Under the pieces are notes generated by a model. That model did no database searches, had not been told where the DNA came from, and worked only from the letters and a program-made list of their open reading frames with translations. Below, one piece after another: positions 6,591 through 64,000 of a DNA stretch of 64,000 nucleotides (its first letter is position 1; every line of letters begins with the position of its first letter). The DNA is from an uncultured Chloroflexia bacterium (lineage in GTDB: Bacteria > Chloroflexota > UBA6077 > JACCZL01), in assembly GCA_963765765.1 (NCBI GenBank), contig CAVXYC010000015.1, positions 704,001 through 768,000 on the forward strand, written 5' to 3'. Made by a program: the position numbers and the translations under genes.

Positions 6591-7496
6591 ATGGCAGTCG
6601 AGATTGGTCGTGTAGTCACCGCGATGGCAACGCCTTTCGATGAGGCCGGTGCCGTTGACTATCAGCGGGCGCGTCAGCTCGCGAGTGCGCTGGTTGCGTC
6701 TGGAAGTGACGCTCTGGTGGTGACAGGAACCACAGGCGAATCGCCGACGCTGACAATTGACGAGAAATTGACTCTTTATCGAGAGGTCCGCGCCGCGGTG
6801 GGGCCGAGTGTTCCGCTCATCGCTGGCTCTACAAACTACAACACGGCGGAAAGCATTGAGCTCAGCCGAGAAGCGGCGCATCTTGGCATGGACGCAATTC
6901 TCGGAACGGTCCCGTATTACAACAAGCCCCCCAGGCGGGCCTGTATCAGCACTTCAAGGCGCTGGCCGATGCCGTGCCTCTGCCCATCATGCTCTACAAC
7001 GTGCCCACTCGTACGGTAACGAACATGTCGATGGAGACGACGATCAGACTTAGCGAGATCGACAACATCATCGGGATCAAGGAAGCTTCGGGAAATCTCG
7101 ACGCGATCTCCAAAATCATTGCTGGCAGCCGACCCGGGTTTCGGGTGTGGAGCGGCGATGATCCTATGACTCTACCGATCCTGTCAATTGGCGGGTATGG
7201 AGTGGTGAGCGTTGCGAGTCATCTTGTGGGCAACCAGATCGGGGAAATGATCCAGCGCTTTCGTACGCGGCGAAAACGCGGACGCAGCGGCCTTGCACCG
7301 AAATCTGCTTCCGCTGGTGAACGCCCTCTTCGTGACCACGAGCCCGATCCCGCTCAAATACGCGCTGGGACGGGTCGGATTTCCCATCGGCATGTGCCGA
7401 CTACCGCTTGTGGAGATCGATCCTGCGTCTGCCGCGATCGTCGACGCTGAGCTGATGAAGGTTCAGATCGATTTGCCAGTGAGAGCCGTGGTTTAG
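6591..7496 (+). CDS. dapA: 4-hydroxy-tetrahydrodipicolinate synthase (split by frameshifts near 6930 and 7265, probably sequencing errors)
   Basis: TAMATPF, GTTGESPTL, PYYNKP, LYNVP.RT, IKEASG, SGDD and SPIPLK spread across three frames. Confidence 0.92.
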
Positions 7497-8058: not shown

Positions 8059-8956
8059 TCAGGCTTTGACGAGCCCCATTGTGTTCGCTCGATCCAGCAG
8101 CCAGCGGGCCTTCACCGCGATCGGGTAGTCGATCATGCGGCCTTCCAGTTGAATTGCGGCATCTCCCCGGGCTTCCGCTTCGTCGAACGCGGCGACCACC
8201 TTTCTGGCAAACTCAAGCTCGTCATCTGACGGGGAGAACACTCGATTAATGATATCCACCTGCCCTGGGTAGATGGCAGACTTTCCCTGAAATCCCGGCC
8301 TCAGCGCATTGCGGGCATCGAGCTCCAGCCCCTCGTTGTCTCGTATATCGATCCAAACGGTATCCAATGGGGCGCTCAATGCCCGCGGCGCGCGAAGCAA
8401 GAACCAGGTGGGAGCGAGCATATTGAAGCTCCAATCCATCGGTCCCCCAGAGACTACCGCCGAAGCGGACGCTGACATCCCGGCAGAAGTCTGCGGCCCC
8501 AAAAGAGAGTCGCTTCACACGGGGCGAAGCACTGGCGACGGCTTGTGCGCCCAGCACTCCGCGGGCGGTCTCGATGGTGGGAATGAGGTCCGTTGTTCCC
8601 GAAGCCACACCCGACTGTAATTCCAATCGCGTCAGGATCTCGTCGACTTCCTGTACATCGGACGGCTGCTCCACCTTTGGGAGCTTGATCCCATCGACTT
8701 CGGGGCAATAGATGCCTTCGAGGTCTGCACGAGTTAGCCCAGTTTCGATGGCGTTCACGCGTACGTAGCGGAGCGGACCTGGGGCGAATTTCGGAAGCGC
8801 TTCGAGAACCATCGGTCGAGTGGACTCTTTCTCCGCGATTGGAACCGCGTCTTCGAGATCCAGAATGATGCCGTCGGCTCCAAAATCAGCCACGCGAGCG
8901 AGCTTGCGCGGCTGGTTGCCGGGCGCAAAGAGGAGACTGCGAAGTGGTCTGGTCAT
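8059..8956 (-). CDS. CitE/HpcH-family CoA ester lyase (frameshifted near 8370-8400)
   Basis: RSLLFAPGN, LDLEDAV, YVRVN, LPKVE, IETARG, FGAADF, GK.AI.P.QV and G.MID.P in two frames. Confidence 0.88.
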
Positions 8957-10462
8957 GTTGTGGTCCTCAAATAGCTTCTCGAATGGCTGAGGCTCTGGAC
9001 CCGCAAGTCAAACTCCATGACCCGCGGTTCAGAGATCGGCTCCATCGAAGGAGATGGAACTGCCTGGATATTCGGCTGTCGTAGATGCCATTCTGTGGCT
9101 CGCTCGTAGGCGTCGCAGAGACGGAGCACGGTCGGCTCTTCAAAGGCCCGGCCTGAGAGAAGCAATCCGATTGGCATGCCCTGATGATCAAAGCCGCATG
9201 GCACGGAAAGCGAGGGTTGGCCGGTGGCGTTGAAGACGCGGTTGAACTGCCCTCGTAATGGAGGTCGTGACTCCGCCTCTTCGTGAAATGTCGGCGCGGT
9301 GCGCACCATCGTTGGGGTGGCAATCACATCAACTCGAGTGAGCGCGTCTGACATCGACCGGCAAAACATCGTGCGTCCACGCTGAGCCTGAATGTACTCA
9401 GTGGCCGTATGGAAGAGCGCCGGTCGGATTCGTTCCCAGAATCCCCGCCCATAGAGCGCGCGCTTCGTTTGCAGCCATTGCTCGTGATACGCGACTGCTT
9501 CGGAAAGCATGATTGTGGATTGAATCGCCTCGGCGTGATCAATCCCCAGGGATCTCGATGTCCAAAACGTCTGCGCCAAGCTGAGTCAGCGTCTGCAGCG
9601 CTTCATTGAAGCTCTGCAGCACTGCCGACTCAAGCGACGGGGCTGATTCCACGAATCGCCGCGGCACGCCAACACGGAGGCCTCTTGCCGAACCGGAAAG
9701 CCCGGATGAGTAGTCAGGAATATCTACGTATGCGCTGGCAGCGTCCGCTGGATCATAGCCCGCGATTGCCTGAAGCATGATCGCCGTATCCGCAACGGTG
9801 CGCGTCATTGGACCGGCATGGTCAAGCGACCAGGACAGCGGCAGGACGCCGGCACGACTGACCAGGCCGTATGTGGGCTTCAATCCGACGATGCCACAGT
9901 AAGCGGCTGGACCGCGTATCGATCCACCAGTGTCACTACCCAACGCTCCGCCACACAGCCCGGCGGCAACGCTCGCTCCAGAGCCAGAGCTCGAACCACC
10001 CGGTACTCGATCCGTAGACCATGGGTTATGCGCGGGCGGAATCTCGTCGTCGAGGTAGGGGCTGCCAATGGCAAACTCATGCATCATGAGTTTGCCCAGC
10101 AAGATTGCGCCCGCGGCGGTGAGCTTGCTGGTTACCGTGGCGTCCTGTGAGGGCACGCGATCCCAGAGTACTCGCGAGCCCCCAGTCGTGCGAATACCCG
10201 CGGTGTCGAAGAGATCCTTCAAAGCGATCGGAATTCCGTGCATGGACCCGCGGGAGCGACCCTGGGCAAGCTCGCGGTCCGCTCGCTCAGCTTCAGTGCG
10301 TGCTCGATCGGCGGTGACCGTTAGGAAGCTCTTGAGCTTGCCGTCTAATGACTCGATACGGCCAAGATAGGCATCGGTGAGCTCTGCCGCGGTGATCTCG
10401 TGAGAGTGGAGCAGCTTGCTAAGGCGTGTGATTGGTAGCAGCGGCAGCTCGGAGGCGCTCAC
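8953..10462 (-). CDS. Amidase signature family enzyme (GatA/AtzE-like; frameshift near 9545)
   Basis: HGIPIALKDLF, PGGSSSGSG, GSDTGGSIRGPA..CG; C-terminal FNATGQPSLSVPCGF..GMPIG in the next frame. Confidence 0.9.
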
Positions 10463-47146: not shown

Positions 47147-48543
47147 CTAGTTTCCGCGCACCGGCGGGGCACCGGCAATCGGCCCAACGCCTCTTCGCAC
47201 CATGCGCCGACCCGCATGAGATCGTAGTCGGCCATCGAAGGCGCCACGAGCTGCAGGCCTAGCGGAAGCCCGTCGGCCGATAAGCCACCGTTTACCGTGA
47301 TTGCGGGGTATCCCAAACAGCTCCAGGGTATGAGAAGCGTGGCCTCTCCAGTCGAAGACGTGCCGCGAGGCGCGGGGGCAGGTGCGACCGCCATGAGTAG
47401 TGCATCCACATCGGCGAATGCCATGTGCGCGCTGTTCCATAGATGCTGTCGGATGCGTTGCGCCTGCAAGTAGTAGCTCGCCGGCACGAGACTGGCGGCG
47501 ATATCGCGACCGGTCTCTGGGCCAGAACCGGACTCCGCCATCTTGCGACTTCGAAACGTCAGACCCTCGGCGTTTCCAACCAGCCGGTGCACCATCCAAA
47601 CCATGTCAAAGTCATCCGGCAGCGTCACATCGACGATAGTCGCTCCGGCATCTTTCAGCCGCATCGCCGACTGGTCGATTGCCTCCAGCATGACGCCCTG
47701 CGTCCGCTCGGGAAAGAAATTTCGCACGCGCCCAATACGTGGACGGGGCAGGCTATCGAGCTTCAGATCAGCCGGTGGCGCAGGCTCACTTCGCGAGGTC
47801 GGATCGCGTTGATCGGGTCCACTGAGGAGCGAAAAAACAAGGGCGATGTCATGCATCGTGAGTCCGATGATCCCGACGTGATCGTGTGACCAGGCGAACG
47901 GGTACATCCCGAATCGGCCGATCCGCCCATACGTTGGCTTGAGCGCATCTACACCGCAGAAAGCCGCGGGCCGAAGATTGGATCCGGCTGTTTGCTCTCC
48001 CAGCGCGGCTGGAACCATCCGTGCCCCCACGGCCGCGCCGGATCCGCTACTGGTGCCGCCGGCGCTGTGCTCGAAATTCCACGGATTCCGTGTCGGAGGC
48101 ATCACGCCGTCGATCGGCATATGAGTTTTCCCCATGATGATCGCACCTGCGGCGCGCAGCTTGGCTACGGCCGTGGCGTCAACTGGTCGGGGCGGATCAT
48201 CCGACGCGGCCATATACGTCGGCATTCCAGCGACGTGGAATTCGTCCTTGATGCCAATTGGAATACCGTGGAGGGGTCCAAGAAACTGCCCAGCTTGGGC
48301 CGATCTCGTGAGGTCGGCAGCCTGTCTCAGGACCGTCTCTCGATCGAGGTAGCACCAGGCCTGGATTTCTGATTCGTAACGATCGATCTGGGCAAGACTC
48401 GCCTCGACGAGGTCCATGGGCGTGATCTCGTGATTCGCTATGAGTGTGGACAGCTCCATGAGTGTCAGGGTGTGGAGTGCCTGCGAGGCTGTGCTCATCT
48501 CAGTACTCAATCCTCGGTGAGTGTTGGCCGCATCGTTCGTCAC
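47147..48543 (-). CDS. Amidase signature family enzyme (true stop probably near 47147 after a 1-bp error)
   Basis: GPLHGIPIGIKD, TRNPW...AGGTSSGS, G.QTAGS..RPA.FCG, LKPTYG, GLPLGLQL. Confidence 0.85.
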
Positions 48544-48722
48544 GGAAACCTTGGCTCCAGTTCATCGGGAAGTACCGTTCGACTGATTGCTGCCATGGCC
48601 TGAGCGGTTGTGGCGAGCGCCTCATCTAGATCGTCTGGCTTGGACGCCAGCTGAAGGTCATCCACCTGACGCTCCAGCCAGGCAAGCGCTTCGTCGCTAC
48701 TAATTGCGGGGTGCAATCGCAT
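48540..48722 (-). CDS. Small GatC/AtzG-like amidase partner protein
   Basis: 60 aa, AAGGAG RBS, acidic helical, ends LPDELEPRFP, overlaps the amidase start by 4 nt. Confidence 0.55.
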   Translation of the reverse strand: MRLHPAISSDEALAWLERQVDDLQLASKPDDLDEALATTAQAMAAISRTVLPDELEPRFP

Positions 48723-48996
48723 GGGCTGCTCCTTCGTTTGAATTTGCCGAATTTGTGAGCCCAGTGTAGGGCCTTCGGCTTTGCGCTGCGCACGGATTGC
48801 GACACCGAATTCTGACACCTCGCGGTTGTGCACGCAGCGCGTGGTACCGCTGGGTGTGTGCGTTCGATTTGTTGACCGCACGGCCCAGAGCTATTCAGGC
48901 CTGGCAACCGCACCATATGCGACAATGCGACGTTCGCCCGTCGTGGTCAACTCCGTCCGCGGCATGCAAACAGGGACAACCCGTACGGGTGTGTTG

Positions 48997-50510
48997 ATGA
49001 GTGAAGAACAGTCGGGTGGTCCACCGCCGGCCGAAGTGCACCCCCGCACCCAGGTAATTCGAGGCCGGCTGCCGGGCGACCGCGTGGTACGCAAGCCTAG
49101 GCGGCGGATTCAGCGACTCCGCCGGGCTCTTGGCGTGGCGGCGCTTTTTCGACCGGCTACGGCAACGTCGGCTCATCGATCTACTACGCGCTCGGCGTGA
49201 CCACCCTCTATGCCCTTGGGGCGGCGCCGTTCGCGCTTATGGCCGCGGGCATCTTTTTTATCTTGACGGTATTGAGCTACACGGAAGCCACAGTGGCAGT
49301 GCCTGAGGCCGGCGGCGCCTCCAGCTTTGCCCGACGAGGATTCAATGAGCTCATGAGCTTCTTCGCCGGGTGGGCGACCTTGCTCTCCTACGTCGTCACG
49401 ATCTCGATCTCCGCCTACTCCGCGGTGGGCTACCTGGCGGTGTTCTTCCCGCTCTTTCGTCAGGAAATCTGGGTCACCGGCGGAGCAGTGGTGGCCATTG
49501 CCTTGCTCACCATCCTCAATCTCGTAGGAGTACGAGAAGCCGCCAGATTGAGCGTCATCTTTGCCGTGATCGACCTGCTCGTACAGGTTGCGCTGGTCAT
49601 CGTTGGAAGCGTGCTGGTAGTCAATCTGCCCGATCTACTGAGCCGAATTCAGTGGGGCACCGCTCCAACGTGGTCAGGCTTTATTTACGGCATTAGCGTC
49701 GCTATGGTGGCCTACACCGGTATTGAGACTATCTCCAACATGGCCGAGGAAGCGCGGAATCCGTCACGCAATGTGCCCCGCTCGTACTACCTGCTCATCG
49801 GGGCCGTCCTGGTCCTGTTCTTCGGCATTTCCGTGGTGGCGCTGGGAGCCATGCCTGTCACCTGCGTGAATGGTGAGTGCACGTCGCAGCTCACGTCGAT
49901 GTACCTTGAAGACCCCGTGGCGGGTATCGCCGAGAATTTGCCCGAGCCGTTCAACCATATCTTCGCTCCTATCGTCGGCATTCTAGCCTTCACCATCTTG
50001 CTCATCGCTGCCAATGCCGGTGTCCTGGGCGCGTCACGACTGTCGTTTTCGATGGGGGCGCATCGCCAGATTCCGCCCTTCTTCTACCGAATCCATCCGA
50101 CGCTGCACACGCCATACGTCTCGATTCTGTTCTTTGGAATCGTGGCCGTGCTCCTGGTGATTCCGGGAGATGTGCCCCAGCTAGCCGACGTGTACATCGT
50201 GGGCGCCATGCTGACGTTCACCATGGCGCACCTGGCAGTCGTTGGCATGCGCATCCGCGAGCCGAACCTTGAGCGCCCCTTCAAGCTGCCCTTCAACATC
50301 TGGGTACGTGGGTACGAGATCCCTGTGACACCGTTGATCGGCGGCCTTGCCACGGCCATCGTGTTCATGATGGTGTTTGTCACCCGCGATTTTGGTCGAA
50401 ATGTCGGCCTTGCCTGGATGGTGCTCGGTATCGGCCTCTACATCTGGTACCGTCGAAAGGAGGGCTTGTCCATCTGGCATCCAGCGGAGCGGCTCACTCA
50501 ACACACGTAA
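48997..50510 (+). CDS. APC-superfamily permease (frameshift near 49150)
   Basis: L.R.LG...LFS.GYGNVGSSIYYALG, SY.E.....PEAGG, AY.GIE..S.MAEE...P, SRL..SM, H....TP, RPF..P; about 12 TM segments. Confidence 0.88.
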
Positions 50511-50615
50511 CCCTCACCGTCGCCGTCTCCCAAACCTTGCCCCGCGGGGCATAGGGCCATGTGCGGCATCGACGTCGGTACAAGAGCAAGTATCGGGAGC
50601 GACTGGAAGGGCCCA

Positions 50616-52222
50616 ATGACGGCTCCAGCACGCCATCCAGACTCCTGGCGATTTTAGCCGAGACCGCCTTTACTCCCTGAATCAAGCAGCGGCGGGCGCA
50701 ATCGCTGCCGTCGCGGTCACAACGCTTCTTGTTGCCTGGCTGCGGAGTCAAACCGACGTCGTGGATGTCAGCTCCGTTTACGTCCTGGCGGTGCTTGCGG
50801 TTGGAAGTGTGGCCGGGCGCCTGTCAGCTTTCCTGGCCGCGATTCTCTCGTTTCTCGCCGTGAATTACTTTTTCGTTGAGCCGATTCTCACCCTGCACGT
50901 CGCAAATCCGAGGGAATGGCTCACGCTGACGATCCTGCTCGTCACGGCCGGCATATCTGGTCAGTTGACGGCGACCTTGCGTGATCGCGCACGGGAGGCC
51001 GAGCGGCGACGCGCTGAAGTCTCCTTTCTCTATGAGCTCGGTCAGCTCCTCGGGAGAGAAGGTCCATTGGAGACCGAATTGCCGAAGGCGTTGCGTGCCT
51101 GGCGGAGATGAGCAAACTACCGCGGGAACAAGTGCAGTCATGTTGGATGACGAACATACAGGGGAGCACGAAGCCGACTGGAGCCGTAGAGCCAGTTTCC
51201 AGCTGAGCTGAGCGCCCTTCAGCTTAAAGCGCTCGAGCAGGGTCGACTGGTAAGCACTGGTTGGCAGCTGAACAATGACAGTTGGACGTTGCTGATTCCG
51301 CTCAGATATCGACGGTGTGCCACACGAAGGCCGGCTCTGGGTGCCATTGTTGGTGGGGCGTACACGCGTTGGGATGCTCGTTCTGGATAACTTCCCCCTC
51401 CACGATGCACTCAGGCCGGATGGGCGCAGCCTTATTCAGGCTGCCGCGACGCTGTTTGCTCAGACTATCGAACGTGACCGCCTCTCACAGATTGCAACCG
51501 AAGCTGAGGTGCTGCGGCGAGCCGATGCACTGAAGAGCGCTCTTCTCTCGTCAGTCTCTCACGATCTTCGCACCCCAATCGCCTCAATAAAGGCCTCGGT
51601 AAGCGCGCTCCTGGATTCGGGGAGCCGCCTTGAAAATGAGGATCGTATTGAGCTCCTGGTAGGTGTGAGCGAAGAAACTGATCGACTTACTCGCTTCGTG
51701 ACGCATCTTCTCCAACTTTCGCGGTTGGAATCTGGTGCCCTGGCTCCGCAAGCCGAATGGTATGAGATCAGTGAGATCATCTGGGAGGTTATTGATGCAC
51801 TTGATCCTTCGGAGGCCTCGCTTCGCCTGCAAATTCCGCCCAATTTCGGGCTCGTGCATGTGGACTACGTCATGGTGGTGCAGATTCTCACTAATCTTGT
51901 GGAGAATGCTTTGCGCTATTCCCACGAACAGAGCCCAGTGGACGTCATTGTTGAGTCAGAGCCAGACAGTTGGCGCGTGCTTGTCATGGACCGCGGCCCG
52001 GGCGTGCCCGAAGTCGATCGGGAGCATATCTTCGAGAAATTCTTCCGATCCCCGTCAGTTGCTCCGGGAGGCACTGGGGTGGGGCTGGCAGTGGCCCAAG
52101 GACTTGCGCGGGCACACAAGGGTGACGTTCGATATGAGCCACGAATGGGTGATGGAGGATGCTTCGTCCTCGAGCTCCCACTAACTACCCGCCCAACGAG
52201 TCCATTGACTGATGGCCGGTGA
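50616..52222 (+). CDS. KdpD-like sensor histidine kinase lacking the N-terminal KdpD and USP domains (frameshifted)
   Basis: DUF4118-type TM region (YVLAV...S.LA.NYFF.EP..TL), GAF-like region, ALLSSVSHDLRTP, NL.ENA.RYS, D.GPG, IF.KF.R, GTG.GLA. Confidence 0.85.
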
Positions 52223-52904
52223 GCGAATCCTCATCGTCGACGACGAGCCTCGGATCTGCCGGGCGTTGCGAGCCGGCCTGAGCGGGCGAGACTACGTCGT
52301 TGACGTTGCCACAACCGGCGGCGAGGCGCTTGACATGATTGCGATTCGTTCACCTGACCTTGTCATCCTTGACTTGATGCTTCCGGACATGAGCGGGCTC
52401 GAGGTATGTAGCGAGATTCGTTCCTGGGGTCACCTTCCTATCATCGTGCTCTCGGCGAAGGGAGCTGAGGGTGACAAGGTCGATGCGCTAGATCTGGGCG
52501 CAAACGATTACCTGACCAAGCCATTCGGTATGGAAGAGCTCCTGGCCAGAGTGCGAGTGGCGTTGCGCCTAACAGCCGGACCACCGCCCCCCTCCGTTAT
52601 CCAGATTGGCGACCTCGTGCTCGATCAGCCGCGCCACCAGGTCGCCAGAGCTGGTGAACCGGTCCACTTAACGCCAACCGAGTATGAGCTCCTACGCTAT
52701 CTAATGTTGAACGCGGGAAAGGTCGTCACTCACCGCGCGCTCCTTCAAGCGGTGTGGGGCGAGGCGTGGGCGGAGGCATCGCCCACGCTAAGGGTCTTTG
52801 TGGCTCAGGTTCGGCGCAAGATCGAGCCCGACCGGGCCCGACCGGTCTACATTCGCACGGAATCAGGAATAGGCTATCGTTTCAAGCTCCCTGACGGTTC
52901 CTAA
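52212..52904 (+). CDS. KdpE-like OmpR-family response regulator
   Basis: VDDEP.I, DL.LPD, PII.LSA...E..KV.ALD.GA.DY.TKPFG..EL.AR.R, HLTPTEY.LL, GKV.TH..LL..VWG, RRKIE.D..RP..I.TE.G.GYR. Confidence 0.9.
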   Translation: MAGERILIVDDEPRICRALRAGLSGRDYVVDVATTGGEALDMIAIRSPDLVILDLMLPDMSGLEVCSEIRSWGHLPIIVLSAKGAEGDKVDALDLGANDYLTKPFGMEELLARVRVALRLTAGPPPPSVIQIGDLVLDQPRHQVARAGEPVHLTPTEYELLRYLMLNAGKVVTHRALLQAVWGEAWAEASPTLRVFVAQVRRKIEPDRARPVYIRTESGIGYRFKLPDGS

Positions 52905-52948
52905 CAACATCCAAACGTACCATAGGCTGACCCTTACAAATTCCAAAG
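52890..52948 (+). promoter_or_regulatory. Phased direct repeats; candidate response-regulator binding site
   Basis: CCTGAC(52890), CCTAAC(52900), CCAAAC(52911), CCATAG(52920), CCTTAC(52932), CCAAAG(52943); 9-12 bp period. Confidence 0.45.
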
Positions 52949-52963
52949 CATGACCTTCCTAGC

Positions 52964-53403
52964 ATGAGGTATGCGAAACAGGGAATCCATCCAGCACCCC
53001 GGGGAACAGATCGCAAGTCCATCGCGACTGGTCGGACGGATCGCGGCCGGGGGCGGTGGTCGCGCCTCCAGCGTGTGCTGGTCGAATTGGACAGCTCATC
53101 GTCCCTCTTCGATGCATGGGCTCGATTCGGGCTCATGGTTGGCATTGTTGGAGTGGCCGCGGTGATCGGAGTTTGGTAGGCGCTGGGGTCGCAGCACTTG
53201 GAGTCTGGACCGAGCTCGATCGGCCGTACGTTCGCGGCGCGGGCGGCGTTATTGGCTTTGGGCTTGGCTGGCTGATGTACGCGCGCGTCGTTCGAATGTG
53301 GGCGGATGATCATTTAGGGTGGGATACTTACAGCCATCGGGTTCGCGTTGCTCGATTTGGCGGAACGACATTGGAAGTAGGACGCGCCCCGCATGAAGAC
53401 TGA
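52964..53403 (+). CDS. Small hypothetical membrane protein (frameshift near 53170)
   Basis: Hydrophobic Gly-rich segments in two consecutive frames; overlaps the start of the downstream permease. Confidence 0.45.
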
Positions 53404-55453
53404 GTCACCAGGAAATGAGCAGGAGGCTCATCCAACCAGCCGTAGTGTCCAGATGGGATCTGACCTCATCGTCCATGAGGTGGTTAAGGGGTCAAAGCCC
53501 GGCGAGCGCTACGTGCGCGTCGTGCGCCCGCAAAACCGCGTGTTCCGACGCGTAGCGCCGGGGCATCTCGAGACGCGTGATGAGGCGCACAAGGCTCGGA
53601 CCGGCTTCGGCCGCGGGATGCAGCGCGTCCGACGCGTCCTATTCGGACGTCCAATCGCCAGCGCGCGGCAAGAGCATGAGCGTCTCACTAAGGTCAAGGC
53701 GCTAGCGGTACTTTCGTCCGACGCACTCTCCTCGTCGGCTTACGCCACCGAGGAGATCATCCGCGTGCTGGTCGTCGCCGGGATCGCGGCGATCTCGCTG
53801 ACGATGCCCATCGCTATTGCCATTACGCTACTGCTGGTGATCGTTTCCACATCGTACATGCAGACGATCAAGGCCTACCCGCAGGGCGGCGGCTCGTACA
53901 TCGTCACCAAAGATAATCTCGGAACATTGCCGTCGCTGGTGGCGGGATCCGCATTGATGATCGACTACGTACTCACCGTGGCTGTGTCGATCTCCGCCGG
54001 CGTTGCTGCCGTGACCTCAGCCATCTCGGGTCTGAAGCCGTTTGCCGTTGAGATCGGCGTGTTCTTCATCGTCCTGATCACAATCGGTAATCTCCGAGGC
54101 ATCCGTGAGAGCGGCTCAATCTTTGCCGCACCCACGTACTTATTCGTCCTTCTCGCGTTGGCTATGATTGGCATTGGCGCGTTCCGTGTAATCGGGGGCG
54201 ATATTCCGCCGCCATCGGTAGTAGAGCCAATTCCCGCGGAGCCGTTCGAAGTCTTGTCGATTTTCATTGTTCTCAAGGCGTTCGCGTCAGGAAACGCTGC
54301 ACTCACAGGCCTCGAGGCGATCTCCGATGGCGTGCCCAGCATTTGAGAAGCCAGAGTGGAAGAACGCGCGCACCACACTGGTCTGGATGGCCGCCATCCT
54401 GGCGGTACTTTTTCTGGGCATCAGCTTCCTGGCAGTGCAGTTCACCATCGTGCCGAGCGAGGCAGAGACGGTCATCTCGCAGCTTGGTCGTATCGCATTC
54501 GGCACCGAAACCCCAATCTACTTCCTGTTCCAGGCAGCCACGATGATGATCCTCGTGCTGGCGGCGAACACGGCCTTCTCCGATTTTCCGAGGCTGTGCT
54601 ATTTCCTGGCTCGCGATCGATTCATGCCCAGCCTCTTCCAATATCGTGGTGAGCGCCTAGCGTTCACCACGGGGATCGTGGCCCTCGCATTTGTGGCTGG
54701 TCTGCTAGTGATCGCGTTCCAGGCCGACACGCACGCGCTTATTCCGCTCTATGCTGTTGGCGTGTTCCTCTCTTTCACGCTGTCCCAGATGGGCATGGTG
54801 ATGCGCTGGTGGCGCAAGCGCGAACCGGGCTGGAAAATCTAGCATGCCGATTAATGCGTTCGGGGCATTGTGCCACCGGCGTCGTTACCATCGTGGTGGC
54901 TACAGAGAAATTCATGGCTGGCGCCTGGATGGTGATTCTGCTGATCCCGATCCTGGTGTATTTACTACGCGCAATCAACGCGCATTATGTGGCCGTGGCC
55001 GACGAGATGGCCATTGAAGATCTGTCGCGCTCTGCGCCAGAAGAGCTTGGTCCGCCCCTGGTGCTAGTGCCAGTCCCAAACATCAATCGCGCCAGTGTTC
55101 GGACGCTCTCGTTCGCGCGCTCGATCTCTGATGACGTCACGGCGCTTTACGTGACTGACGATATGTCATCGGTTGAAATGCTCAGGAAGCGCTGGACGCA
55201 GTGGGAAGGTGATATGCCGCTGGTGGTGCTGGAATCACCGTACCGCTCTCTCACGGCGCCGATTCTGGCGTACGTAGATGCTCAGCGGGCACAGCATCCC
55301 AACCGCACGATCATGGTGGTGCTGGGCGAATTCGTACCGCGGCGCTGGTGGGAATGGCTGCTTCACGGACAAGCAGCCCTACGTTTGAAAGCCGCGTTGT
55401 TCTTCCGTCCGAACGTCGTGGTCGCGGATGTGGCGTACCACCTGACGAAGTAA
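53393..55453 (+). CDS. KimA/YdaO-like APC-family K+ transporter (frameshifts near 54340 and 54838)
   Basis: G.PI......ERL.K..ALAVLSSDALSS.AYA.EEI, SY.QTI.AYP.GGG.Y.V..NLG, DY.LTVAVS, ALTG.EAIS.GVP, AANTAF..FP, LIPLYAVGVF.SFTLSQ.GM, SPYR....P, WW..LLH.Q cytoplasmic domain. Confidence 0.88.
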
Positions 55454-55527
55454 GAGCGGGCAGCCTTCGACGCGTCGTAGCCGGTCCGTCGATTGCGAAG
55501 GGCCGATGTGTGTACGCCCTTGAATCG

Positions 55528-56876
55528 ATGGATGACCAGCGGAGCGTTGGCCCGCCACATCGCGGCGTGGGCGCATCTCAACGTCGGGAATCCAGGTCAT
55601 CGACGCCGAGCCTCGATGGTTTGAGCCGGGAGAACGTTAAACAGCGCGTTCTCGACCCTCTTCCAGACGAACTTCCGCACGGGCTACTCCAACTGGCTGC
55701 AGGCGCCCTTATGCCTACATAGCCCCTGCGAAGCATGGCTACCCGCATCAATGGCTGTGGGACACGGCATTCCAGTCCATTGTCTTGAGTCACATCGATC
55801 CGCCCTGGGCGGAGAGAGAGATCGAGAACTTTCTCCAGGTCCAGGGGCCAAACGGATTCTTGCCGCATGTCATCTTCTGGGACGAGCGTCACGTTCCGTT
55901 CTGGGGCCGACTGCTCAGTGATGACAGCCTCCACCCACACTACACATCTATTACGCAGCCCCCTGTCCTGGCTCTTGCAGTGGAGGCCATCTACGCAAAA
56001 TCAAATAATAGGCAGTTCCTGGCACGGGTAGTGCCTAAGGTGAACGCCTACCACCATTGGCTCGCGCGCACTCGCGACCCGTATCAGTCGGGACTGCTGT
56101 CCATTATCTCCGCCGATGAATCAGGGATGGATGAGCTGCCGATCTTTCAATACGCGGGAGGGCTCAAGCACAACAACTTCTGGGTATTCCATTACTTCAA
56201 TCGAAAAGCCGACGTGCAGAACAAACTGTACGGCTACGACCTTCAGCGCATCTTTACGGCGGACTACTTCACCATCAAAGAGATCATTTTCAATTGCATC
56301 TACATCGAAGCCAACAGGGCACTGGCCCGACTCCACCATATTCTTGACGATTCGGCGTCGGCTGTCGTCGCCAATCAGAGAGCCAGCGTATGCACTGATG
56401 CGCTCATGAATCTTTGTTGGCACGATAAGGATCAAATTTTTTATCCCGTGTACTCCAGGAGAAACAAGACTATTCCGGTGAAGAGTGTCACCAGTCTCGT
56501 CCCGCTATTCCTGACCGATCTCGACGCTGCTTATGCAGAGCGACTCATCAAGATGCACCTGCTCAATCCCAATGAGTTCAATCTTCCGTATCCGATCCCA
56601 TCAGTGGCGAAATGCGAGGTGTTCTTCCATCCTGAAACGCTGCCCTTCTACTGGATCAAGGCTCTCTGGCGAGGGCCCACGTGGTTCAGTACCAACTGGC
56701 TGGTGGTCAAAGGGCTCTTGAAGCACGGTTACGACGATATCGCGAGCGGAATTATTGCTCGCATGGGCGAGATGGTTGAGCGCGGCGGATTCCGCGAATA
56801 TTTCAACCCGCTAACGGGCAAAGGCTACGGGAAGCACAATTTTGGTTGGTCTACCTTGCTCCTGGACCTCATTTGA
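55528..56876 (+). CDS. GH63/MGH1-like (alpha/alpha)6 glycoside hydrolase (N-terminal frameshifts; start uncertain)
   Basis: YPHQWLWD, Q..NGF.PH, S.TQPP, ESGMD, WRGP.W...NWL, GFREYFNP.TG.G.G...F.WS. Confidence 0.8.
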
Positions 56877-56930: not shown

Positions 56931-58320
56931 ATGCCAATGATCTCGCAGTATGACTCCGCCGCATTCATGCATCGGGCAACCGCTCATTTTCTCCGGGGCA
57001 AGGACTTCGACATCAGGAAGAACGTACCTCGCGGCGTTCCCAAACCGGTCTTCATGGGCCTGATTCGCTCGTTGAACGAGCTTGCCGGAACGGCTGAAAA
57101 TTGAACTCTCCGTTGCCACAAGTCAGACTCAGGCTGTGAGTGCCCGGGACGTCGTGGAGGTGAACGAAGAGCGCATCGCGCACGACCTGGTGGCGCAGTA
57201 CCCCAGACGGAAGTACCCGGCGATCGCCATCGGATCGTCCAATGGAGCGCTTGTTCACCTCTTTGCGGCGCTCGGCATTCCGTGGCTTCCGCAGACCAAC
57301 CTCATGCTTGTAAACCGCGATGAGCCTATTGAGCCCGACGATATGGCGCAGGATGCTGAGTGGGGAAAATCGTTCGCTCGGCCCATGCTCGACCGCAATC
57401 CCAACCTGAAGCTGCATCAGATGAACGATCCGGCCCAGGACCGGTACATGGCCATCAAGATGACCTACTTCAGGCTCAAGTTCCTGAATCTTCCGCAAGC
57501 ATATCGACGTTTCATTGAAGAGTGCCTGGAGCCGGGCGGAGTGATCCTGGTGATCAACTGCCAGAATCGATGGCCGGCGACGAAGATTACCGATCGTCAC
57601 TATTTCCAGGTGGGTGGGTACGGCGGGATTACGCTGGACGAGTACCTCCATGGTGGCCCGCGCGTCAAAGAGTTCCTGCAGCGGAACGGGTCCAAGCGGG
57701 ACCATTTCCTGCTTCCCGAGATTACTGGTGACTATCTCGAAGCGGAATGGGGCTTTGAAGAGTCGATGCTCGAAAGCATTGACTCGCTTGCCAGGGAGCG
57801 TGACTACGAGGTGAAGCAGCTTTATTTCGGGGACCCTCAGGACCCCGTGCGTCCCATCGCCGATTTCTATTGCGATTGGTACGACTCGATCGGTCGACCG
57901 ACCGACAAGCTGCTCATCGAATCTTTCATGCTGCTCGAACCGTACTGGTGCCTGCGCACCGGCAGCATCCCGTATTGGGCGGTCTTCACCGGCCAGCCGT
58001 CGTTCGACGACATTACCGGCTATGTGAGTCAGCACGATTTCAACTACATCTATCTGACGCTGTTCTCCAATATCGTGCGCTCGATCGGAGTGCCGGAAGG
58101 CCGGGAATGGGAGCGGATCATCGAAAAGGCTCGCGCGGGACATGCACTCCTTGGCGTGGACCCCGAGAAGTTTCCCTTCGATTTAACCAGTGCGTTCCAA
58201 TTCTTCGACGATGTGAAGACGAAGATACCCTTCCGATATGAGCTGCCCGAGCCCGTGCCGCTGCAGACATTCGAACACTTCCTGTCAGCGCATCCAGATT
58301 ACTCACTCCAGATGCGCTGA
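56931..58320 (+). CDS. Hypothetical protein, ~460 aa (frameshift near 57085)
   Basis: Long ORF with protein-like composition and motif-like segments (YDSA..M.RA...FL.G.DF, GSSNGALVHL.AALG.PWLPQT, HQMNDP.QD, EAEWGF). Confidence 0.7.
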
Positions 58321-58359
58321 GGTGCTGCTCCAATCGCGGCGCCGTCCCGAGAATCCAAC

Positions 58360-58444
58360 GTAGCACGGGTCCTTGTGTCCTGCGCCTAGAACTCCCAATC
58401 GCTGACTGGGATTCTCAGGCACAGGGTACAAGGACCCGTGCCAC
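58360..58444. repeat. REPIN/MITE-like palindromic element, family A, copy 2
   Basis: GTAGCACGGGTCCTTGTGTCCTGCGCCT ... AGGCACAGGGTACAAGGACCCGTGCCAC; ~28-bp imperfect IR. Confidence 0.75.
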
Positions 58445-58497
58445 ATTTCAGTCAGCCATTCGGCGATAATGGCGAATCATTGCTTGACGACGAGCTG

Positions 58498-59046
58498 TTC
58501 GGCCGCCTCGGTGCACCGTTCGCGGCGACCCGCTTCAATGTGACGCCGGACCTGATGACCGTCGCCAAGGGCATCACCAACGGCGCCGTGCCGATGGGTG
58601 CGGTGTTCGCGAAGTCGATGATCCACGACGTCTTCATGAACGGGCCGGAGCACGTGATCGAGTTCCCGCACGGCTACACCTACTCGGGCCACCCGCTGGC
58701 CTGCGCCGCGTCGCTCGGCACGCTCGACACCTATGCCGAGGAAGGCCTGCTGACGCGGGCCCAGCAGATGGAGCCGGTGCTGGAGCAGGCGCTGCACACG
58801 CTGCGCGAGGCGCCGCACGTCATCGACCTGCGCAACATCGGCCTGGTCGGCGCGATCGAGCTGGCGCCGCGCGCCGGCGAGCCGGGCAAGCGCGGCTTCG
58901 AGGCGATGCTCGCCGCCTGGGAGCGCGGCCTGCTGATCCGCACCACCGGCGACACGATCGCGCTGTCGCCGCCGCTGATCGTCGAGAAGTCGCACATCGA
59001 TCAGATCGTCGGCACGCTCGCCGACGTGTTGAAGACGATCGCCTGA
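58498..59046 (+). CDS. C-terminal part of a class III omega-amino acid:pyruvate aminotransferase (5' truncated at the junction)
   Basis: FGRLGAPFA, PDL.T.AKGITNG..PMGAV, HGYTYSGHP.A.AA, L.R.TGD.IALSPPLI; the DEVITG and upstream parts are missing. Confidence 0.85.
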   Translation, partial: FGRLGAPFAATRFNVTPDLMTVAKGITNGAVPMGAVFAKSMIHDVFMNGPEHVIEFPHGYTYSGHPLACAASLGTLDTYAEEGLLTRAQQMEPVLEQALHTLREAPHVIDLRNIGLVGAIELAPRAGEPGKRGFEAMLAAWERGLLIRTTGDTIALSPPLIVEKSHIDQIVGTLADVLKTIA

Positions 59047-59188
59047 GGGAGATCTGATCCGCTGCACCCGGCCGCGCAGGCGGCCGGGTGTGGACGGTTG
59101 ACGACGCCTTCGGCCTGGCGACTCCGCCGCGGGTTGTCGGCTGCGCGAGGCCATGGACAATGGCGGGCTTTGCGCCCTCCTCGACCCG

Positions 59189-60301
59189 ATGCAGCCCGCG
59201 CCGTTTCTCCAGATCCAGGACATCGTCAAGGACTTCGACGGCCATCGCGCCGTCGACCACGTCAGCATCGACATCGCCAAGGGCGAGGTGTTCGCGCTGC
59301 TCGGCTCGTCGGGCTGCGGCAAGACGACGCTGCTGCGGATGCTGGCCGGCTTCGAGACGCCGACCTCCGGCACGATCACGCTCGACGGCCACGACCTCGC
59401 CGGCCTGCCGCCGTACGAGCGGCCGCTCAACATGATGTTCCAGAGCTATGCGCTGTTCCCGCACCTGACGGTCTGGGACAACATCGCGTTCGGCCTGCGC
59501 CGCGACGCGCATGCCGGCCGACGAGATGGCGCAGCGCGTCGACGCGATGCTGAAGCTGGTGCAGCTCGACGGCGTTCGCGAAGCGGAAGCCGCACCAGCT
59601 GTCGGGCGGCCAGCAGCAGCGCGTCGCGCTGGCGCGCAGCCTGGCCAAGAAGCCGCAGCTGCTGCTGCTCGACGAGCCGCTCGGCGCGCTCGACAAGAAG
59701 CTGCGCGAGGAGACGCAGATCGAGCTCGCCAACATCATCGAGGACGTCGGCGTGACCTGCGTGATGGTCACGCACGACCAGGAAGAGGCGATGACGATGG
59801 CCTCGCGCATCGCGGTGATGAGCGAAGGCCGCTTCCTGCAGGTCGGCGCGCCGGGCGAGATCTACGAGACGCCGGCGAATCGCTTCGTCGCCGACTTCAT
59901 CGGCAACGTCAACCTGATGGACGGCACGCTGGTCGAGGACGAGCCCGGCCACGTGGTCGTCGAGTGCGCCGACTGCCGCCACTACGTCGGCCACGGCATC
60001 ACCGGGACCACGTGGAATGCCGGTCACGGTGGCGCTGCGGCCCGAGAAGATCCGCATCGGCCGCGCCGCGCCGGACGCGCGGCGACGGCCTGCCGGCCGC
60101 GCTTCAACCGCGTCCGCGGCACGCGTCAAGCGACATGGCCTATTTCGGCAGCTTCACGGTCTACCACCTGGCGCTGCCGAGCGGCGCCGTGCTCAAGGTC
60201 AGCCAGAGCAACACCGAGCGCGAGCGCGGCGGCCGCTGACCTGGGGCGACGAGGCGTGGGCGAGCTGGTCGACCCTCGCGCCGGTGGTGCTGACGTCATG
60301 A
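59189..60301 (+). CDS. potG: Putrescine/polyamine ABC transporter ATP-binding protein (frameshifted)
   Basis: [67 protein letters not shown]. Confidence 0.88.
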
Positions 60302-61230
60302 CGAGCCGCGCGTTGCGCGGGCGCCGCGCGCGGGCGCGCCGCGGTGATCGGCGATCCCTACCTCTGGCTGCTGGTGTTCTTCCTGCTGCCGTTCCTGGTG
60401 GTGCTGAAGATCAGCGTCTCCGAGATGGAGGGCGCGACGTTCCAGCGACCTCGTCGCCTGGCAGGACGGCGCGGTCGCCTTCAACCTGAAGCTCGCCAAC
60501 TACCTGCTGCTGGTCCAGGACGACCTGTACTTCGCGACCTACCTGTCGAGCCTCAAGTACGCCGCCGTCGACGACGCTGCCTGCCTGGCGCATCGGCTAT
60601 CCGTTCGCCTACTTCATGGCGCGCGCCCGGCGCGACGCTTGCAGCCGGCGCTGCTGATGCTGGTGATGCTGCCGTTCTGGACCTCGTTCCTGCTGCGGGT
60701 CTACGCCTGGAAGGGCCTGCTGACCGAGAACGGCTGGGCCGCCGACGCGATCGAGGCGCTCGGTCTCGACCAGGTGCTCGCCGCGCTCGGCCTGATTCCC
60801 GGCCCCGGGCAGCTGATGAACACGCCGTTCTCGCTCGTGCTCGGCATGACCTACACCTACCTGCCGTTCATGATCCTGCCGCTCTATTCGAACCTCTCGA
60901 AGATGGATCTGCGCCTGCTCGAGGCGGCCGCCGACCTCGGCGCGAACGCCTGGGTCGGCGTTCTGGAACATCACCGTGCCGCTGTCGCGCGCCGGCATCA
61001 TCGCCGGCTCGATGCTGGTCTTCATCCCGTGCGTCGGCGAGTACGTGATCCCCGAGCTGCTCGGCGGGCCGCAGACGCAGATGATCGGCCGCACGCTGTG
61101 GGACGAGTTCTTCAGCAACAACGACTGGCCGATGGCCTGCGCCGTCGCCGTCGCGATGGTGCTGCTGATCATCGTGCCGCTGGCGGTCTTCAGCCGCTAC
61201 CAGGCCGAGGCGACGGAGCGCCGGTCGTGA
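60298..61230 (+). CDS. potH: Putrescine ABC transporter permease (frameshifted)
   Basis: [68 protein letters not shown]. Confidence 0.85.
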
Positions 61231-61241
61231 GGCGCGCGGCC

Positions 61242-62090
61242 ATGACCGGGCGGCCGCGCCTCAACCGCGCTGGTTCGGCGCGCGGCTGGCTCGGCGCCGG
61301 CTACCTGTTCCTCTACATCCCGATCGTCGCGCTGGTGCTCTACTCGTTCAACGACTCGCCGGTGCCGAACGTCTGGCAGGGCTTCACCGTCAAGTGGTAC
61401 CGCGCGCTCGCCTCCGACCGCGAGCTGCTCGACGGCCTGTGGCTGTCGCTGAAGATCGCCTTCGTCACCGCGACGTCGTCGGTCGTGCTCGGCACGCTGG
61501 CGGCGTTCGCGCTGGTCCGTATCGGCGCTTCGACGGCCGCACGCTGTTCGCCGGCATGGTCGCCGCGCCGCTGGTGATGCCCGAGGTGATCATCGGCCTG
61601 TCGCTGCTGCTGATGCTGGTGCTGCGCGTGCAGCAGCGCGCTCGGCTTTCCCGAGCGCGGCATGGCGACGATCTGGCTCGGCCACCTGCTGCTCGGCATG
61701 GCCTACGCGACCGTCGTCGTGCAGGCGCGCCTGCAGACCTCAACGCGCAGCTCGAGGAGGCCGCGATGGACCTGGGTGCGCGACCGTGGGAGGTCTTCCA
61801 CCTCGTCACCCTGCCGATGATCGCGCAGGCGCTGCTGTCGGCCTGGCTGCTGACCTTCACGCTGTCGCTCGACGACGTGGTGCTGTCGGCCTTCCTGTCC
61901 GGGCCCGGTGCGACGACGATGCCGCTGGTCATCTTCTCGCGCGCCCGGCTCGGCCTCAACCCGAGCGTCAACGCGGTCGCCACGCTGATCGTGCTGGTCG
62001 TCTCGATCGGCGTGATCGTCGCGAGCTGGCTGATCGCGCGGCAGGAGCGCCAGCGCGCTGCCAGGACGTCGCGGCGGCCGCGCCACGTGA
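61242..62090 (+). CDS. potI: Putrescine ABC transporter permease (frameshifted)
   Basis: FLY.PI..L..YSFN.S....W.GF..KWY, PLVMPEVI.GLSLLL, EEAA.DLGA.P, FTLSLDD, GPG.TT.P, LG..P..NA.AT. Confidence 0.85.
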
Positions 62091-62125
62091 CCGCTGGCGC
62101 GCGCCGGGCTCGCGACGGGACCGGC

Positions 62126-63100
62126 ATGACGGCGCGTCCGGTCCGCTGGCGTGCCCGCTGGACGGCGTACTCTGCCTGGCCGCCAGCATGGCGATCGTCG
62201 GCGCCTACGTCGGGCTGTCGAAGGTCCTGGTCGCGGTGTTCCCGGTCTTCCTGCTGGCCTGGCTGCGCTTCGGGATCGCCGCCGTCGCGATGGTCGGCTG
62301 GATGCGCACGCCGGCCGACGAAGGCCGGCGCTGACGCCGCGCGACGCGCCGGCTGCTGTTCATCGAGTCGTTCTTCGGCAACTTCCTGTTCTCGATCTGC
62401 ATGCTGTTCGGCGTCGCGATGAGCTCGGCGCTCGCGGCCGGCGTGATCATGGCGGCGCTCCCGGCGGTCGGTCGCGATCCTGTCGCGCGTCTTCCTGCGC
62501 GAGCGGATCGGCACGCGCGTCGCGCTGCGGCATCGCCTGCGCGGTCGGCGGCATCGCGCTGGTCGCGCTGACCCGCCACGCCGGCGAGCGGGCTCGCAGC
62601 TCGGTCCTCGGCAACGCGCTGCTGTTCTGCGCGGTCTGCTGCGAGGCGACTCTATGTCGTCGTCGGCAAGCTGCTGACCGGCGCGGCTCGGGCCGAAGCG
62701 CATCAGCGCGCTGATCAACCTGTGGGGCTTCGCGCTCGTGATGCCGTTCGGCGTCTGGCAGGCGCGGCTTCGTTCGACTTTTCGTCGCGGCGCCACGTCG
62801 TGGGTCTTGCTCGACCGGCTACTCGATCGCGGCCAGCATGTTGACGGTCTGGCTCTGGATGACCGGCCTGAGCACGTCGATGCGGCGTCGGCCGGCACCT
62901 TCACCGTGCTCCTGCCGATCAGCGCCGGCGCTGGTCGGCGTCGTGTTCTTCGGCGAGCGCATCGGCACGATGCAGGCCGCTCGCCTTCGCGCTCGCGCTG
63001 GCCGGCATCGTGCTGGCGACCTGGCCGTGCGCGTCCGCGCCACCCGCGACCTCGACGGCCGGCAATCAGCGTCAGCCGGCACGGCCGCTGCCGGCGAGTT
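62126..63100 (+). CDS. DMT/EamA-family transporter (frameshifted; ends approximate)
   Basis: CLA.SM..VG.YV.LSK.LV..FPVFLLAWLRF.IA, ESF.GNFLFSICML.G, CEA.YVV.GK, WLWM.GL. Confidence 0.75.
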
Positions 63101-63761
63101 CAGCGCTTGCGCGCCAGCGTCAGGCCGTCGCCGACCGGCAGCATCGCGATGTCGATGCGCTCGTCGCTGTGCAGCTTGTCGTTGAGGGCCTGCAGGGCCC
63201 GCGTGTCCGCATCGGTCGCCGGCCGAGCGACGCTGCCGCCCCAGAGCACGTTGTCGATCGCGATCAGGCCGCCCGGCCGCAGCAGCTGCAGGCAGCGCTC
63301 GTAGTAGGCGTCATAGCTCGCCTTGTCGGCATCGATGAACGCGAAGTCGTAGCGCCCGGCCTCGCCGGCCGCGAGGCAGGCGTCGAGGGTGTCGAGCGCC
63401 GGCTCCGAGCCGCAGGTCGATCTTGCCGGCGACGCCGGCCGCCTCCCAGAACGGCCGTCCGACGCGCGTGTACGTCGTCGCTGACGTCGCAGGCCAGGAT
63501 GTAGCCGTCGGCCGGCAGCGCGAGCGCCACGGTCAGCGCGCTGTAGCCGGTGAACACGCCCACCTCGATGCAGCGGCGCGCACCGATCAGCCGGACCAGC
63601 AGCGCCATCAGCTGGCCCTGCTCCGGACCGATCTGCATGCCGGCGTGCGGATGCGTGCGGGTCGCTTCGCGCAGCTCGGTCTGCGCCGGGATCTCGCGAA
63701 CCGAATGGGCAACGAGATAGGACTGCAGCGTGTCGTCGAGCGTCAAGGTGCGATTGGCCAT
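63100..63761 (-). CDS. Class I SAM-dependent O-methyltransferase (caffeoyl-CoA OMT-like; frameshifted)
   Basis: MQI.PEQGQ, E.GVFTGYS.L, ACD, FIDADK..Y..YYE, GGLI.IDNVLW.G, D.R.D. Confidence 0.88.
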
Positions 63762-63807
63762 CGAAGTCTCTCGGGTCGGTTGAAGAAGGGCGCGACCGGT
63801 GTCGCGG

Positions 63808-64000
63808 TCACGTACCGAGCTCGGCGGGCTCGCGCGACGACGACCGCGGCAGCAGTCCGGCGCGCGGCGGGAGACCTCGCGCGGACCCAGCGCCCTGATG
63901 GCAGGATCTGACCAGACCTGCCGCCAGCGCCGGGCCCCGGCCTCGCCGTGGCGCAGGCCGAGGATGTGGCGCGACACATGCGTCCACGGCTCGCCGGTGC
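63808..64000 (-). CDS. dusA: 3' end of tRNA-dihydrouridine synthase A (partial)
   Basis: SRHILGL.HG..GARRWRQ..SD is the DusA C-terminal signature; the ORF runs off the window end. Confidence 0.65.
   Translation of the reverse strand, partial: HRRAVDACVAPHPRPAPRRGRGPALAAGLVRSCHQGAGSARGLPPRAGLLPRSSSREPAELGT

Follow-up and report, generated by a model that had tools for sequence, protein, structure and literature searches.

In textbooks, KdpDE regulates a single operon, kdpFABC, and the question raised by the locus described here is what a two-component system of this type could control in a genome devoid of that operon. The locus occupies positions 48997-55453 (+ strand) of a 64,000-nucleotide stretch of DNA from an uncultured Chloroflexia bacterium, to which, at its full length, we refer as the window, and lies at C15:752,900-759,500 in the source genome (G000; 6.49 Mb, 91.8% complete, 6.9% contamination). 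It consists of four genes, coding for an APC permease, a histidine kinase, an OmpR-type response regulator and an APC-type protein in three pieces. An initial annotation, made from the sequence alone, had read it as a KdpDE-like system wired to two APC permeases, and the co-directional permease, kinase and regulator, the repeats and the KimA-like transporter that it listed are all present; their identities stood up to analysis, whilst the frameshifts running through three of the genes (permease, kinase and KimA) had been overlooked.

Our interpretation, to which we would give a probability of about 0.68, is that the locus is a K+-limitation switch, in which the kinase half of KdpD acts through a KdpE-like regulator and four half-sites on KimA. 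We infer K+ to be both the signal and the cargo. The kinase, present as its transmembrane (TM), GAF-like and DHp-CA half, would sense low K+ through the membrane and GAF-like part and phosphorylate the KdpE-like regulator, which would then occupy four phased half-sites located immediately after its own gene and activate transcription of the KimA gene downstream. The KimA-type K+/H+ importer would provide inducible K+ uptake beside a Trk/Ktr-type system and so take the place of KdpFABC, and the serine-kinase (KdpD/Usp) half, which acts on the pump and in this phylum travels with kdpFABC as a separate gene, is missing here along with the pump. That the regulator induces the KimA-like carrier had already been proposed in the initial annotation; the link between the two is strengthened by the recurrence of their genes side by side and by dyads shared with other loci, and the activation itself is, as before, presumed.

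Kinase, regulator and transporter

The kinase gene (50616..52222, its start inferred from a three-frame read to be the ATG at 50616) codes for the C-terminal half of KdpD. Pfam places DUF4118, a membrane domain of four helices, at 50620-51111 (PF13493, E=1.5e-23) and HisKA and HATPase at 51296-52222 (PF00512, PF02518), the best NCBIfam match covers positions 401-887 of the 895 in the KdpD model, and the H-box, N, G1, F and G2 motifs can all be read in the translation. Scores against this model (NF007793), namely 63 and 155 bits for two window pieces and 242 bits for an intact orthologue, are below its equivalog cut-off of 1123; the best solved match of the intact orthologue is the KdpD kinase core (6LGQ). 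The N-terminal part of KdpD (PF02702 plus Usp) was found neither in the kinase gene nor, by a genome-wide search, anywhere in G000.

The initial annotation had described this kinase as truncated and made of TM, GAF and histidine-kinase parts only. DUF4118, HisKA, HATPase and the lack of a KdpD/Usp part agree with that description; the GAF domain, however, is undetected by Pfam in the window pieces, where the region is frame-broken, and emerges only as a sub-threshold GAF_3 match (E=4e-4) in the orthologue of a relative (G003). As for truncation, the gene does lack the KdpD/Usp part, but it is better read as the kinase half of the split KdpD architecture described by Silberberg et al. 2024 (PMC11018627). 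As in the class presented there, the window kinase is a TM/GAF/DHpCA chain, and the KdpD/Usp chain of its relatives stands separately at kdp operons; the window differs in that the pump and the KdpD/Usp chain are both absent, the kinase chain being kept together with KdpE next to KimA. The survey, as that paper gives it, took in only species with an annotated Kdp pump.

The regulator gene (52212..52904) is intact, begins 11 nt before the kinase gene has ended, and codes for a receiver (PF00072) and an OmpR-type winged-helix output domain (PF00486). Among solved structures it is closest to KdpE of E. coli (4KNY, 3.3e-58, 200 bits, the next family reaching 156 bits), and its best NCBIfam model is KdpE as well (NF007820), with 218 bits, below the 325-bit equivalog cut-off. 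The locus resembles the E. coli KdpD/KdpE-kdpFABC system in both proteins, in the order of kinase and regulator with overlapping stop and start, and in K+ limitation as the presumed signal. In spite of these similarities it has no KdpD/Usp half and no kdpFABC, its candidate target is a secondary transporter of the KimA type, and its scores fall short of the equivalog level. A search of the whole of G000, which is 91.8% complete, turned up neither KdpA nor KdpC, and KdpB gave no match above the cut-off; the genome has single genes for a TrkH-type protein, a diadenylate cyclase, KimA and a DUF4118 kinase, and none for Kup.

The last gene (53393..55453, in frame pieces 53393-54346, 54267-54842 and 54809-55453) is, judging from its sequence, a true KimA homologue. 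Residues 98-702 of an intact orthologue, which is 66% identical to the window's first 317-aa piece, align to residues 3-605 of the 607 of B. subtilis KimA (YdaO; PDB 6S3K, also 8B70/8B71) with E=8e-158, and the window pieces cover residues 32-704 of the orthologue, C-terminal cytoplasmic domain included. All eight residues listed as K+-coordinating in bioRxiv 10.1101/2023.07.05.547876 (D36, Y43, D117, T121, S125, T230, E233 and Y377) are found in the window's own pieces. The start codon is conserved with G001, a genome of the same genus, and the protein is built of a 12-TM APC core, the C-terminal cytoplasmic domain and, as a difference from B. subtilis KimA, an N-terminal extension of ~75 aa (~95 aa in the intact orthologue).

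What is known so far of the control of KimA expression is a c-di-AMP riboswitch in Bacillus. Here a scan of 48000-56500 returned neither a ydaO riboswitch nor any other Rfam family at E<=1, and upstream of the gene lie, unlike in B. subtilis, a two-component system and a putative operator. The activity of KimA is under direct c-di-AMP control in Bacillus (bioRxiv 10.1101/2023.07.05.547876, PMC10117811), and by analogy a similar control of the window protein is possible, given the cyclase gene in G000. The following statements of the initial annotation can be kept, some on a broader footing: the regulator is KdpE-like in both PDB and NCBIfam, the transporter is KimA-like over its full length and at 8/8 K+ residues, there is no ydaO riboswitch in the region scanned, and the lack of kdpFABC, for which a check of the rest of the genome had been advised, extends from the window to the whole assembly.

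Recurrence of the gene order

The arrangement of kinase, regulator and KimA, for which the initial annotation had suggested a neighbourhood survey, recurs widely. It was followed in 41 genomes from the order and class (tallies including G006, on which no particular result depends) and in 79 kinase loci from public genomes, retrieved with an alignment of four intact kinases as query and one genome per species; the latter are mainly Chloroflexota, with a few Gemmatimonadota and Actinomycetota. KimA-like genes were also counted in a wider sample of 201 genomes of the phylum (including G075 and G199). All the comparative counts that follow come from relatives that are not independent of each other. 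KimA-like genes occur in 38 of the 41 relatives (and in 112 of the 201 genomes of the phylum sample), DUF4118 kinases in 34, the KdpD N-domain in 14 and KdpA in 12. Among the relatives a DUF4118 kinase lies no more than 6 kb from 21 of the 71 strong KimA matches; conversely, 20 of the 86 DUF4118 kinases are near KimA and 10 near KdpA. This adjacency is seen in 18 genomes, 12 of them without KdpA; among these 12 are G005, G015, G018 and G029, at 97-100% completeness. The 79 kinase loci, counted by hand, hold a KimA-like gene in 31 cases, kdpA/B in 22 (usually with a separate KdpD/Usp gene) and both in 3, the remainder being mostly short contigs. When genes within 2.6 kb of 66 kinase-regulator pairs are considered (a set with at least one duplicated place, L026 = L079), 28 pairs have KimA only, 15 Kdp only, 5 both and 9 neither, and 9 run into contig ends.

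KimA and Kdp labels are mixed throughout a quick maximum-likelihood tree built from the regulators (the 28 rows labelled KimA require 20 changes, and 21.5 on average after shuffling), so that we take this to be one regulator type with interchangeable neighbours. The window regulator pairs in this tree with that of G003 (aLRT 83), where the order is KimA, kinase, regulator. The KdpD N-domain, on the other hand, is nearly always found next to kdp genes, as a separate open frame of ~370-450 aa with KdpD and Usp domains; such a chain exceeds the cut-off as an open reading frame (ORF) of its own in 13 of the 41 relatives.

Some of the surveyed loci carry additional conserved genes. At ten Kdp-type Chloroflexota loci (L037, L040, L051, L060, L069, L081, L085, L092, L093 and L108) the gap of ~1 kb between regulator and kdpA holds a conserved gene for a stand-alone receiver domain (~130 aa), and at least two of these loci also have a KdpF-like peptide. 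In the Anaerolineae loci L053, L067 and L077 a conserved ORF of ~240 aa without assigned family lies between the KdpE-like regulator and KimA.

The repeats behind the regulator gene

Just past the regulator stop there are direct repeats, with 16-nt copies at 52900 and 52932, which had been noticed in the initial annotation as phased and which now resolve into four half-sites: TCCTAAC at 52899, TCCAAAC at 52910, CCCTTAC at 52931 and TCCAAAG at 52942 (offsets 0/11/32/43). They make up two dyads with an internal spacing of 11 nt, 32 nt apart and beginning on the regulator stop codon, and a fifth half-site (TCCTAGC) follows at 52957. From their sequence and from comparison with other genomes, these repeats (52899..52948) look like the putative operator of the regulator. 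For KdpE of E. coli, binding to a pair of AT-rich direct repeats of 6 bp has been reported (PMC3264566); by analogy the window layout is of the same kind, with short direct repeats 11 nt apart, but doubled, and with four half-sites of the TCCTAAC type in place of two AT-rich hexamers.

An operator of this type is conserved ahead of KimA and kdp genes. The dyad TCCTAAC-N4-TCCTAAC (no more than 2 mismatches in 14) has 10 matches in 2.76 Mb of other loci, and six of them lie within 700 nt upstream of KimA (four: in G005, G017, G032 and a Chloroflexales metagenome-assembled genome) or of kdpA (two metagenome-assembled genomes), a region amounting to 2.6% of positions; the binomial probability of six in ten there is 6e-8, to be taken, like all such values here, as indicative only, the half-site motifs having been chosen after the loci were viewed. 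A weaker copy of the dyad is found upstream of KimA in G009. Other lineages have GTTGAGC or CTTTACG half-sites in the same layout, and the two-dyad arrangement, with a spacing of 31-33 nt, was counted in 37 locus-motif cases over 105 loci but in none of five shuffles of each; its typical place is immediately after the regulator gene, before KimA or a kdp operon. Phased 7-mer repeats average 2.66 upstream of kinase-adjacent KimA genes against 0.61 in shuffled sequence (n=50), and 0.73 against 0.57 upstream of non-adjacent ones (n=22), where they are not enriched. Within G000 itself 11 dyad matches with up to 2 mismatches were counted against ~23 expected from composition, the dyad of the locus is the only one in 6.49 Mb with no more than 1 mismatch, and this genome-wide dyad scan revealed no second operator target. 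A dyad-like pair at 8341-8369 of the window lies inside an HpcH/HpaI aldolase gene and was taken as chance.

Between operator and KimA start extends a leader of ~440 nt (52949..53392), GC-rich and conserved in G001 only over its last ~100 nt, in which searches for protein families and Rfam matches were negative and the predicted fold was unremarkable (z-score -0.29). The small membrane ORF that the initial annotation had placed in this region (53056-53403) is not supported as a gene: Pfam and NCBIfam gave no match for it, G001 does not share it, it has no homologue among the ORFs of 38 gap regions between response regulator or histidine kinase and KimA or KdpA, and its G+C at the three codon positions (0.72/0.58/0.53) is unlike that of real genes in the window. 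An opposite-strand ORF at 52882-53313 and an ORF at 52964-53179 gave no family match either.

Seen from this wider angle, it seems fairly probable that the kinase half of KdpD together with KdpE forms a general, portable low-K+ switch, seen here across Chloroflexota, that its four-half-site operator has moved between two unrelated uptake systems, the KdpFABC pump and the KimA symporter, and that the serine-kinase half stays with the pump. If so, nature has separated the domains of KdpD in such a way that transcriptional K+ sensing needs only the TM/GAF/DHp-CA half, and KimA would be a regulated high-affinity importer in many soil bacteria without the c-di-AMP riboswitch route. The rewiring is, besides, genetic evidence of an independent kind for the recent view of KdpD as made up of a serine kinase directed at the pump and a histidine kinase directed at transcription. 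Split KdpD, the KimA family and the KdpE operator type are already known, and what is new is the kinase-regulator pair with KimA in Kdp-less genomes. A full-text search, with subscription journals outside its coverage, found no paper linking a KdpDE-like system to kimA, and a Streptomyces review (PMC10117811), as far as its available text goes, gives KimA-like genes and KdpDE separately. The window adds to this the counts across the phylum Chloroflexota, one operator type common to KimA and kdp promoters, and a warning about assembly indels, and it offers a directly testable model for the response to K+ scarcity in many uncultured soil bacteria that have no Kdp pump.

One further observation concerns loci of the Limnocylindria type (L090:11234-11695, L098, L097 and L094), where the ORF behind the double dyad (~150 aa) codes for a free-standing homologue of the cytoplasmic domain found at the C-terminus of KimA, and complete KimA genes follow further on, on the opposite strand.

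Other readings of the locus, and its neighbours

Several observations weigh against the switch as we propose it. Taken alone, the window repeat is not beyond chance (5 matches with up to 3 mismatches against 2.24 expected, two of the five side by side) and its second dyad is weak, with 3 mismatches; the operator sits ~445-495 nt upstream of the KimA start, much farther than in most other loci, with an unexplained leader between; and no sigma-70-like promoter was found on the + strand of 48500-55900. In the survey, 50 of the 71 KimA genes have no kinase of this type at a distance of up to 6 kb, even if short contigs are frequent, and some kinase-regulator pairs have unrelated neighbours. In G001 (92% complete) the permease is followed by KimA after a 364-nt spacer (L013, G001:C608, 8915-11569); neither kinase nor regulator separates the two, and DUF4118 kinases are missing from the whole assembly, so that KimA can exist without the switch, which is dispensable in a close relative; the module was either lost in G001 or inserted in the window lineage. 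Finally, the kinase gene is more densely broken (at least four breaks in 1.6 kb, against ~1/kb nearby) than the neighbouring genes, which leaves a small chance for its true decay.

This last point bears on the alternative that survives best, unlikely as we hold it to be, namely that the breaks, or at least those of the kinase, are real, and that the switch is a dead remnant left after the loss of kdpFABC, with KimA expressed independently, as must be the case in G001. A relative that keeps permease and KimA without such a kinase would fit this idea, and the reads of the source sample provide no check on the breaks, the best public sequencing run holding only 11% of the sampled words. Relative to G001 the breaks are single-base indels. 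In a three-frame read the permease passes from a frame 1 N-terminus to a frame 3 body near 49145, where alignment with the intact 530-aa gene of G001 shows a single 1-base gap. The first membrane helix of the kinase has no upstream start codon, at least three frame changes fall in 51000-51390, and the high-scoring segment pairs with the G003 kinase are in frame 1 (50719-51096) and frame 2 (51335-52189). The KimA gene runs through frames 2, 3 and 2 again and, compared with G001, has one extra base at each of 54338, 54838 and 54870; a neighbouring amidase has a single-base indel at 47168 relative to the same genome, in which the counterparts of the broken permease and KimA genes are intact.

Essential genes elsewhere are broken in the same manner: rpoB of G000 (C20:326017-329370) is spread over three frames and two of the three long class-I tRNA synthetases are split over two, whilst in the window a second amidase and a DHDPS gene are also in fragments (fragmented places include 8953-10462 and 6974-7450). 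Moreover, contigs of other soil metagenomes restore the frame exactly at three sites. One of ~95% identity has an additional T behind 49144, which puts the permease back in frame; base 51003 is missing from a metagenome contig, which accounts for the change from frame 1 to frame 2 in the kinase; and a contig 98.7% identical to the window is without base 54338, so that the KimA frame is restored. Elsewhere in the kinase, contig X1 has two 1-base gaps, at 50777 and 50869, where contig X5 is gap-free. Since rpoB and two synthetases are broken as well, and since frames are restored at these three sites, the sequence evidence makes it most likely that the breaks are indels of a long-read-type assembly, at ~1 indel/kb, and that the genes are intact in the organism, an interpretation in keeping with the intact regulator and the preserved catalytic motifs of the kinase. 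Apparent pseudogenes in the G000 assembly are, at this rate, unreliable and should not be used at face value.

Apart from decay, the switch could dissolve into mere neighbourhood: a shared 'potassium island' without direct wiring, in which the regulator targets its own operon or other genes and the repeats are autoregulatory or due to chance. In many loci the operator does sit where the regulator gene ends, irrespective of the gene that follows, and its distance from KimA and the weak statistics of the window-only repeat point in the same direction. We nevertheless find this quite improbable, because at divergent loci (L111, L113 and L028) the dyads lie between kinase and KimA and point to KimA, and at L027 they stand ahead of KimA in a fetched locus where neither kinase nor regulator was found. 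Dyads also precede kdp operons, they are not doubled at L048 and L075, where unrelated genes come after the pair, and no second site with up to 1 mismatch exists in G000.

The remaining alternative concerns the first gene, the APC-superfamily permease (48997..50510; PF13520, E=2e-39, and PF00324), which the initial annotation had made a co-sensor of the truncated kinase, that is, a trigger transporter passing K+ or substrate information to it. It is co-directional with the kinase across a gap of 106 nt, and distant APC permeases are met near such kinases elsewhere, one (35% identity) behind a double dyad between the kinase-regulator genes of locus L038 and another in G024, 3.3 kb from a DUF4118 kinase. 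Outside the genus, however, orthologues of the window permease (58-62% identity) occur only in G012, G029, G031 and G033, and there beside neither KimA nor such a kinase, at none of the 79 kinase loci is there a close orthologue alongside, and G001 retains the permease without the kinase. Phased repeats (at least 6/7) were found neither upstream of the permease nor in the gap between permease and kinase, and only 5 of the 8 K+ residues of KimA are present in it, the missing ones being D36, Y43 and D117, which include both aspartates. The sites proposed for K+ sensing in KdpD are, in what PMC11018627 says of them, in the TM/GAF part, which the window kinase keeps, so that no co-sensor is needed; a sensing role of the permease, which has no backing from the comparative data, is very improbable.

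We regard the permease instead as a generic APC member and a neighbour of the switch rather than a part of it. Its closest solved structures are amino-acid transporters (E ~1e-20 to 1e-23), and it shares the 12-TM APC core and the glycine-rich TM1 motif with APC amino-acid/polyamine permeases such as GkApcT (5OQT/6F34), xCT and b0,+AT, differing from them by an N-terminal tail of ~60 aa. Every NCBIfam match is far below cut-off, for which reason its substrate cannot be named.

The permease of L038 (L038:8616-10199) merits a separate word. Without a KimA tail, and flanked by two kinase-regulator sets, it immediately follows a GTTGAGC double dyad; we mention only as a lead that it may belong to the regulon too.

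Downstream of KimA, at 55785-56876, the window codes for an MGH1-like glycoside hydrolase (PF22422, E=2e-65, matched from profile position 17), probably unrelated to the switch. Beyond it, in 58001-64000, G+C rises from ~0.60 to 0.66-0.72, with strongly negative AT skew and many overlapping long ORFs on both strands.

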